A stretch of DNA of 64,000 bases. Source: an uncultured Chloroflexia bacterium (GTDB lineage Bacteria; Chloroflexota; Dehalococcoidia; DSTF01; JALHUB01). The notes under the pieces were generated by a model that saw nothing but the letters and a program-made list of their open reading frames with translations, had not been told where the DNA came from and did not search any database. Location of the stretch: assembly GCA_963842845.1 (NCBI GenBank), contig CAWJHZ010000005.1, positions 1,308-65,307 on the forward strand. Reading direction: 5' to 3'. How positions within the stretch are numbered: the first letter of the stretch is position 1; each line of letters begins with the position of its first letter. Below are positions 2,117 to 3,867 of this stretch, one piece after another. A program made the position numbers and the translations under genes.

Positions 2117-3400
2117 TCATGCCTTCGAGTCCTGCACGCGCGCCAGGCGCGCGAATCGGGCGGGCAGCCACCAGTTGTAGCGGTCGAGGATCGCCATCAG
2201 CGCAGGCACGAGGCAGGCGCGAACGACGGTCGCGTCGACGAGCACGGCGAGCGAGAGTCCGACGCCGAACTCCTGCAGCCCGGCGATCTGGCCGGCGACG
2301 AAGCCGGAGAAGGCGGCGACCATGATCACGGCCGCAGCGGTGACGATCCGCCCCGTCCGCTCGAGCCCGTGCGCGACGGCGCGCGCGTTGTCGTGGACGT
2401 GGTCCCACGACTCGCGCATGCGCGTGACGAGGAAGACCTCGTAGTCCATCGAGAGGCCGAAGAGCATCGCGAACAGGAAGATCGGGATCCAGCCCTCGAT
2501 CTGCGGCACGCGGTAGAGGCCGAGCACGTCGGCGCCGACGCCCCAGCGGAAGATGACGACGAGCAGGCCGTAGACGGCGGCGACCGAGAGCAGGTTGAGC
2601 AGCACCGCCTTGAGCGGGAGCACGAGCGAGCGGAAGGCGCGCAGGAGCACGAGATACGTGAGCACGAGCGCGCCGAGCACGAGCCAGGGCAGCAGGCCGT
2701 ACGAGCGTGAGAGGTAGTCGACGCCCTGCGGCGGCGCGCCGCCGGCGTAGACCCGCACGCCGGCCGGGAAGTGCGCGGCGGGGACGAGCGTGTCGCGCAG
2801 CCGGTGCACGAAGGCCTGCGTTGCCTCGTCGCCGTACTCGTGCCGGCCCGCCACGATCACGCGTGCGTACCGGCCGCTCGGATCGACGTACGGCGCTCCC
2901 GGCCCGGTGGCGGTGACGAGCGCCTCGGGGTCGTGGAAGATCAGGCCGGAGAGCCGTTCGACTGCGGCGTGCACCGGCCCAGTGCGCGCGCGCCCCGGTG
3001 CGCCCGCGTCGACGACGACCTCCGTGGGTGTGAGCGCGCCCGCGCCGGCGTTGGCGCGCAGCAGCGCCAGCCCCTGCGCCGACGCGGTGTGGCCGGGCAG
3101 CGCGGAGATCGAGCCGGGCGTGACCTGGAGGAAGGCCGCGGGCACGGCGGCGGCGACGAGGATGGCGCGTGCCGACGGCCGAGGAAGGCGGCGGGCCGGC
3201 GCATGATCGCGCGGGCGAGCCGCGCCCAGAAGCCGCTGTCGACGTCGATCGTCCCGGGCAGGATGGGCAGGCGGATCGCCGAAGCGGGAGCGCAGCAGCG
3301 CGGCGACGGGCACGCGGCGGGCGCCGCGGCGGCCGAACACCGAGAGCAGCGCCGGCTGGAGCGTCGCGGCGGCGGCGATCGACGCGAGCAATACGTCGAG
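2117..3400 (-). CDS. MMPL-family (RND superfamily) transporter; only the C-terminal half is present, comprising the second periplasmic domain and TM7-12, and the 5' end is cut at the GC/AT junction
   Basis: Typical MMPL C-terminal TM bundle: LPWLVLGALVLTYLVLLRAFRSLVLPLKAVLLNLLSV...FLFAMLFGLSMDYEVFLVTRMRE. There is no ATG; the open frame simply runs into AT-rich DNA at 3400-3433. Confidence 0.7.
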   Translation of the reverse strand, partial: LDVLLASIAAAATLQPALLSVFGRRGARRVPVAALLRSRFGDPPAHPARDDRRRQRLLGAARPRDHAPARRLPRPSARAILVAAAVPAAFLQVTPGSISALPGHTASAQGLALLRANAGAGALTPTEVVVDAGAPGRARTGPVHAAVERLSGLIFHDPEALVTATGPGAPYVDPSGRYARVIVAGRHEYGDEATQAFVHRLRDTLVPAAHFPAGVRVYAGGAPPQGVDYLSRSYGLLPWLVLGALVLTYLVLLRAFRSLVLPLKAVLLNLLSVAAVYGLLVVIFRWGVGADVLGLYRVPQIEGWIPIFLFAMLFGLSMDYEVFLVTRMRESWDHVHDNARAVAHGLERTGRIVTAAAVIMVAAFSGFVAGQIAGLQEFGVGLSLAVLVDATVVRACLVPALMAILDRYNWWLPARFARLARVQDSKA

Positions 3401-3531
3401 TCGAAGGTCAACATAACAATACCCTTCTTGCAACTCAACGGCTATCTCAGGGGTGATGAAGTGTGTTGAGCCATCGATATGAGAGCGGAAGGTGACGCCC
3501 TCATCGGTGACTTTCGAGAGGGCAGGCGCGG

Positions 3532-3726
3532 CTAAACACCTGGTAGCCGCCCGAATCGGTCAAAACGGCTCCGTCCCAGTCCATGAAGCGGTGTAAACCG
3601 CCCAGCTTTTTGATTACCTCTATTCCCAGGCCTGAGATATAGGTGATAGGTATTGTAACCTGTGTAAGCAAGTGTTATCCAAACATTCGGTAAAACTTGT
3701 ATATTCCAAGTATGAGTAGCCGACAT
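3532..3726 (-). CDS. hypothetical 64-aa protein, the first gene of the AT-rich element, with the conserved leader
   Basis: ATG preceded by TAAGGTGAAGTAAAATG, the same leader as the structural-operon genes. Its 3' part lies in DNA of intermediate GC content. Confidence 0.4.
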
Positions 3727-3867
3727 TTTACTTCACCTTAAAATTAGAATCAACTGCCGAGTTTATAAAATTATTGCTTCCTTTGTTTTTCAGCAGGGCA
3801 AAAACGACATCTAAATAATTTATATGAATTAAAGAAAGCTATGAATTTCCATTTATGCAACCCGAGT

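Follow-up and report, generated by a model that had tools for sequence, protein, structure and literature searches.

A GC-rich to AT-rich junction inside an MMPL transporter gene on a public metagenomic contig is most likely a technical chimera

Near the left end of a 64,000 nt stretch of contig CAWJHZ010000005.1 (positions 1,308 to 65,307; GenBank assembly GCA_963842845.1, filed as an uncultured Chloroflexia bacterium), here called the window, GC-rich DNA that carries one half of an MMPL/RND transporter gene gives way to about 60 kb of AT-rich, phage-like DNA. A first-pass annotation placed this switch at 3380–3740 and offered two explanations without ranking them, namely that a large foreign element has integrated within a coding sequence and has its boundary here, or that the assembly contains a chimeric join. 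Of the two explanations, the chimeric join was found to be strongly supported and the integration boundary unsupported. With high confidence, the junction is a technical chimera that corresponds to no real genomic feature; its most probable origin is a chimeric long read that was incorporated into the assembled source contig (73,459 bp).

The change in composition is itself real and sharp. The GC fraction is 0.65–0.80 up to about position 3390, 0.50–0.55 at 3400–3700 and 0.22–0.50 over the remaining 60 kb. Comparison with sequences from elsewhere resolved the transition into two exact breakpoints, at 3389/3390 (breakpoint 2) and 3656/3657 (breakpoint 1), such that the GC fraction steps from 0.711 (1–3389) through 0.521 (3390–3656) to 0.386 (3657 onward). 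Thus, the switch does lie where the first-pass annotation had put it, but it consists of two joins instead of one, and the 300 bp stretch of intermediate GC described there, although present, is an internal fragment of a tRNA-guanine transglycosylase (tgt) gene and not a gradient. The second join had been overlooked, as had many frame-breaking indels in the left 3.66 kb. Tetranucleotide profiles correlated at r = 0.92–0.97 within the AT-rich block and between the block and its continuation in another contig (L002, described below), and at r = −0.5 to −0.6 with the GC-rich piece. There is little doubt that three unrelated pieces have been joined: a Gaiellaceae-type fragment, a tgt scrap of 230–270 nt, and a phage-like genome, one gene of which is severed at codon 23.

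The first piece (1–3389) belongs to the chromosome of a Gaiellaceae-type actinobacterium from soil. The window starts inside a gene of which the last ~162 codons are present (2–487, plus strand), matching residues 153–314 of a 314 aa open reading frame (ORF) of a relative, L005, with 93% identity in tblastn. It is followed by a gene for a secreted IPT/TIG-like protein (514–2070, plus strand) and by the convergent C-terminal half of the MMPL/RND transporter gene (residues ~303–724; 2117–3389, minus strand). This gene order and the intergenic spacers are kept in relatives, with which the piece also shares its tetranucleotide profile (r = 0.97). Indeed, window 1–3389 is colinear with a 288 kb long-read contig from ENA (contig_31482, L003; 85.9% nucleotide identity) and with a short-read Gaiellaceae metagenome-assembled genome (MAG; L004, 87.9%). 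Both alignments stop at 3389, where all homology to Gaiellaceae chromosomes ends; among ~80 Gaiellaceae/Actinomycetota loci, no alignment goes beyond this base and 18 end exactly there. At breakpoint 2 the relatives read ...GTGCC/GCTCGCG, as opposed to ...GTATT/GCTCGCG in the window.

The minus-strand ORF at 2117–3433 matched the Pfam MMPL family (PF03176, 5.9e-33) over profile positions 24–311 of 333, and the transporter piece shares 84% protein identity with the Gaiellaceae MMPL protein of L004. The N-terminal half is indeed missing, as the first-pass annotation had stated, since the alignment covers only residues ~303–724 of the 724–744 aa found in relatives; the full two-half architecture, which occupies ~720–740 aa in one frame in close relatives, does not occur in the window. 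Uninterrupted MMPL ORFs of 724–744 aa were present in all four short-read relatives checked (L004–L007), and the long-read relative L003 likewise carries the N-terminal half upstream. Because both halves are present in these relatives and the window matches only residues ~303–724, the MMPL gene should not be called interrupted. Judged by these alignments, it appears to be uninterrupted in any organism, and a foreign fragment merely ends within it. A near-identical reference for the MMPL piece was not found, the best matches being 81% in a word-index protein search and 91% over the best segment of a GTDB genome. As for L003, frame-breaking indels occur in its own MMPL and TIG-like genes (~6000 and ~8030); therefore, indel errors seem common in such high-GC long-read contigs, and split gene calls there need caution.

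On the other side of the junction, the true continuation of the AT-rich genome was recovered twice. The short-read contig L002 (8,817 bp, run ERR10755942) is 100% identical to the window from 6826 to 3657, over 3,170 nt without gaps. Past window base 3657 it diverges completely and runs on through a further 5.6 kb of AT-rich sequence absent from the window. What the window retains at 3657–3740 (minus strand) is a leader/ribosome-binding motif (TAAGGTGAAGTAAAATG) and the first 23 codons of a gene for a 237 aa Flg_new_2 protein, here fused to tgt codons. In L002 this gene is intact (3101–3814); its ORF starts at the equivalent of window position 3726 and crosses breakpoint 1. At the break the element reads ...CACAGGTT on one side and CCGGTTCAG on the other, and the read-through sequence in L002 is ...CACAGGTTCCGGTTCAG... 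A 64%-identical homologue of the 237 aa ORF, from the unrelated run ERR3804374, is continuous across the same residues. The L002 continuation resembles the AT-rich block of the window in tetranucleotide profile (r = 0.92–0.94), in its leader motif and in the kinds of genes that it carries (Flg_new_2, HNH).

The second continuation is contig_86765 (L087), a long-read ENA contig of 18,395 bp from assembly ERZ25039512, which is AT-rich throughout, encodes the proteins of the L002 continuation and is 99.89% identical to L002 without gaps over 5.65 kb. Its last six bases, AACCTG (18390–18395), are window positions 3657–3662, and it is the real neighbour of the AT-rich genome. As contig_86765 ends there and the window continues with foreign DNA, the long-read assembly is broken exactly at base 3657. 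The chimera may have forked the assembly graph here, or the viral DNA may have a real end or nick, and either would make contig_86765 stop at this base; the fork is favoured, since the base falls in codon 23 of a gene. No overlap of the kind that a circular map would give was found between the far end of contig_86765 and the 1.4 kb available from the right-hand extension of the window. The source contig runs for at least 578 nt to the right of the window, still in phage-like sequence.

The 267 nt between the two joins belong to neither neighbour. Their larger part (3422–3654, minus strand) comes from the interior of a bacterial tgt gene (Pfam TGT, 3.3e-28, profile positions 48–123 of 357), and tblastn reads this part over three frames, −3, −1 and −2, with shifts near 3625 and 3525; the complete TGT catalytic domain, with 357 profile positions in a single frame, is absent. 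The best database proteins are Tgt from assorted bacteria with only 70–76% identity, and the protein searches found no near-identical reference (best 76%). In composition the scrap forms a third class, and it derives from a third bacterium. The product of the chimeric 64 aa ORF at 3532–3726 was not found on any other contig looked up.

These findings bear directly on the integration hypothesis, according to which a 60 kb AT-rich prophage or genomic island would have inserted into MMPL in a Gaiellaceae host, with attL or attR at the junction and the N-terminal half of the transporter at the other end. A host gene cut midway and followed abruptly by DNA of foreign composition is what a prophage attachment junction looks like. 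Moreover, the free form of an integrated element also diverges from the integrated form at its attachment site (attP), so that the divergence of L002 alone is not decisive. However, the element is cut within a gene of its own, at codon 23 of the conserved 237 aa ORF and not at an element end or att site, and third-party DNA, the frameshifted tgt fragment of another genome (267 nt with its linker), separates it from the MMPL gene. At the breaks, the sequence of the element and the native MMPL sequence (...GTGCC/GCTCGCG) have no common core, and no target duplication accompanies them. The gap of 32 GC points between supposed host and element, together with a tetranucleotide r of −0.55, is far outside normal phage-host similarity, and the host-side sequence carries error-like indels. 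The first-pass annotation had noted neither an integrase nor an att-like repeat on this side of the junction, and this is true of the entire window. Pfam and PHROGs scans of ~55 ORFs of the block, confined to the window (the source contig has a further 9.4 kb outside it), recovered no integrase, recombinase or transposase, and, except for the gene-leader motif, no direct or inverted repeat ties 3380–3740 to other parts of the window. The position of the break within a conserved ORF, together with the intervening tgt scrap, excludes integration, whose probability is judged close to nil.

A related possibility is offered by the host flanks of Mu-like transposable phages and of headful-packaged genomes, in which variable bacterial DNA may appear at the end of a viral sequence in single long reads. 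Unlike in these systems, the genome does not end at the breakpoint in L002, where the ORF is intact; a transposase was not found, and the attached DNA derives from two bacteria.

The left pieces also appear to differ in consensus quality. The GC-rich piece has about five frame-breaking 1 nt indels in 3.39 kb compared with relatives (~527, 1613, 3167, 3179 and 3277). The first two break the IPT/TIG-like gene, which is a single ORF of 524–580 aa in relatives, including the short-read MAGs L005–L007, and which is split in the window over the frames 678–2180 and 1651–2070; the corresponding gaps are visible in the comparison with L003, and the same gap positions are common to many relatives. The other three are window-specific 1 nt insertions in the MMPL gene (~3167, ~3179 and ~3277), absent from L003 and L004, which put residues 340–371, i.e. 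32 well-conserved codons (SGFWARLARAIMRRP...), into another frame. At least two more frame-breaking 1 nt indels occur in the 267 nt of the tgt scrap. Frameshifts thus number ~1.5 per kb for the GC-rich piece and 7 per kb or more for the tgt scrap, as against none in 8.4 kb and three in 2 kb in the AT-rich block, a contrast with exceptions. The 8.4 kb of the block compared with short-read contigs differ by one substitution and no indel, and contig_86765 has no indel in 5.65 kb. Once the frames are corrected, the proteins are 84–93% identical to those of relatives and free of stop codons, hence the indels are errors or extremely recent events and do not reflect decay. The left tail probably stands at roughly single-read depth.

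Frameshifts and truncations are also what genuine pseudogenes show. On that reading, old and decaying inserts, acquired horizontally by the AT-rich genome, would account for both the tgt scrap and the GC-rich DNA. The GC-rich piece, however, keeps its native Gaiellaceae composition and the synteny of three genes including their spacers, its frame-corrected proteins retain the high identities given above, and the insert is absent from the same-strain short-read and long-read contigs (L002 and contig_86765). Since stop codons and amelioration are both absent, the GC-rich insert is not old, and the pseudogene explanation is regarded as extremely improbable.

Both breakpoints fall inside genes, and each side continues differently in independent assemblies, the AT-rich one in L002 and contig_86765, the GC-rich one in L003, L004 and the ~80 relatives. 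The locus thereby resembles known chimeric contigs, whether derived from a multi-segment nanopore read or from a graph mis-join: unrelated genomes abut at arbitrary intragenic points, the joins lack repeats, there is a sharp change in composition and apparently in consensus quality, a short segment lies in the middle, an adapter remnant is possibly present, and the true continuation exists as a separate contig. Multi-segment inter-species chimeras account for 1.7–8.2% of nanopore reads (10.1101/2021.11.19.469328). The related contigs retrieved bear Flye-style names, and many of the relatives were produced by the long-read project Microflora Danica, which relied on LSK114 ligation chemistry, assembly with Flye --meta and a single Medaka round (PMC12313526). 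Judging by names alone, the source contig may belong to this project too.

The most probable course of events would start from one chimeric long read that combined phage DNA with a short stretch of tgt and a stretch of Gaiellaceae DNA, and that may have arisen by ligation of fragment to fragment and/or by consecutive strands passing unsplit through one pore. A Flye-type assembler taking up this read would append its tail to the phage contig and fork the graph at the chimera point; the tail, left at ~1x depth, could not be freed of indel errors by polishing. In this way one chimeric long read can extend a viral contig with foreign DNA and, at that very base, break the assembly in two. Somewhat less likely than this chimeric-read route is a mis-join made purely in the assembly graph, between two or three paths of low coverage.

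A trace of library preparation may be preserved in the 40 nt linker at breakpoint 2 (3390–3429). Its minus strand reads ATGTTGACCTTCGACTCGACGTATTGCT, directly upstream of the MMPL fragment (which continues CGCGTCG), and resembles the insert-proximal end of the Oxford Nanopore Technologies (ONT) ligation adapter, AATGTACTTCGTTCAGTTACGTATTGCT (10.1101/2022.07.07.499093). Anchored at the join, the 23 nt adapter core aligned to 3387–3414 with an edit distance of 6 (74% identity, a weak match), and only 11 of 127,922 window positions were as good. The final GCT of the adapter-like string is also native MMPL sequence (3 of its 10 exact bases), and when ONT adapters were aligned locally to the entire window without anchoring, the scores stayed at chance level. 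The string may thus serve as a lead, with p roughly 0.001–0.01, and is no proof. The segment 3390–3429 could instead be garbled tgt; read as tgt in another frame (KGIVMLTFDSTY, or YVDLRLDVLL compared with DLGSDIVM of E. coli), it shows a similarity too weak to decide.

No adapter was found at breakpoint 1 (3656/3657), and this would agree with a real hybrid DNA molecule, formed by illegitimate recombination or end-joining of virus DNA with bacterial fragments and faithfully recorded by a long read. Possible routes are the capture of bacterial DNA by a virus, a transduction-type particle and the joining of extracellular DNA. Rare real molecules can be recorded by single-molecule reads, and the end of a long-read contig does coincide with breakpoint 1. 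This explanation nevertheless needs two successive joins among three unrelated genomes, all three pieces are internal gene fragments without functional logic, and the dominant population reads straight through, as seen in L002 and contig_86765. Furthermore, such a molecule is indistinguishable from an in vitro ligation during library preparation, a known and much commoner source. A natural hybrid is accordingly thought very unlikely. An equally small chance is given to the specific case that the soil sample contained such a molecule, with the genome of a low-GC virus end-joined to fragments of two bacteria, for example after faulty packaging or an illegitimate recombination event in a host of very different GC content; breakpoint 1 would then be a genuine viral genome end, explaining why contig_86765 stops at the same base.

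Some points weigh against a technical chimera. Depth and clipping at the joins are presumed ones, only one independent same-strain contig, L002, crosses breakpoint 1, and the link between the source contig and the Flye/ONT assembly ERZ25039512 is deduced from shared ENA provenance and exact abutment. The adapter-like string occurs at one of the two joins, where the match is weak and partly native, and the end of the long-read contig at breakpoint 1 could mean that real DNA ends there. Finally, the AT-rich block itself has three 1 nt indels compared with the short-read contig L085, near 63458–63890 (minus strand). They are confined to 430 nt of an ORF with a CxC...CxH (SWIM-like) motif at 63092–63991, whose frame is broken at the first indel in the window and at the other two in L085, so that neither copy is intact.

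The AT-rich block (3657–64000) was characterized by Pfam and PHROG scans, by its tRNA and by its tetranucleotide profile as a phage-like genome. It holds numerous short ORFs, among them homing endonucleases, together with one intein, a cluster for glycan modification, beta-helix proteins, tail-spike-like proteins and a single tRNA-Asn. Capsid, terminase and portal proteins were not recognised in the Pfam and PHROG scans of the block; window 3657–28600 had no match in GenBank phages by megablast, and exact-pattern scans of IMG/VR, GTDB genomes and JGI metagenomes with window 3660–3699 were negative. The leader/ribosome-binding motif TAAGGTGAAGTAAA(ATG) is conserved before several minus-strand genes, recurring at 3724–3740, 45092–45108, 45460–45476 and 47194–47210 and, in L002, at 6906.

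An ORF of 1,934 aa at 11339–17143 (minus strand) consists mostly of 213 nt and 654 nt tandem repeats, some copies of which are 98–100% identical. It has a strong skew of C over G and of A over T and a GC fraction of 0.47–0.50, above that of its surroundings; the protein has no confident family match, and the neighbouring ORFs encode beta-helix and tail-spike-like proteins. The sugar-modification cluster extends over 19557–38368 and comprises a DegT-type aminotransferase, a UDP-glucose dehydrogenase, an NAD-epimerase, two GT4 glycosyltransferases and an Anp1-like match, along with at least six S-adenosylmethionine (SAM) methyltransferases, one of them a triple-domain protein of 598 aa. An intein with a LAGLIDADG endonuclease lies inside an unnamed host protein at 51669–53474 (minus strand), and free-standing homing-endonuclease-like ORFs (LAGLIDADG, HNH, NUMOD3) are located at 37571–38368, 17397–18071, 25784–26698, 35533–36426 and 4563–5069, a density unusually high for 60 kb. 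Two copies of a 43 nt direct repeat (95% identical) are found 17.7 kb apart, at 23028–23070 and 40764–40806, and the short-read contig L001 ends inside one of them. The tRNA-Asn (GTT) at 30095–30169 (minus strand) is the sole Rfam gathering-level match in the window.

The value of the junction finding is practical and not biological. At least the left 3.66 kb (window 1–3656) of the public 73 kb contig should be trimmed, and this tail is unusable for inferring a Gaiellaceae host, a prophage state, horizontal transfer of the MMPL gene or a virus-encoded tgt. Any finding in the window that rests on the linkage of GC-rich and AT-rich DNA is void. As for the AT-rich DNA, the 60 kb block and contig_86765 should be treated jointly as a single phage-like genome with a length of at least about 88 kb.

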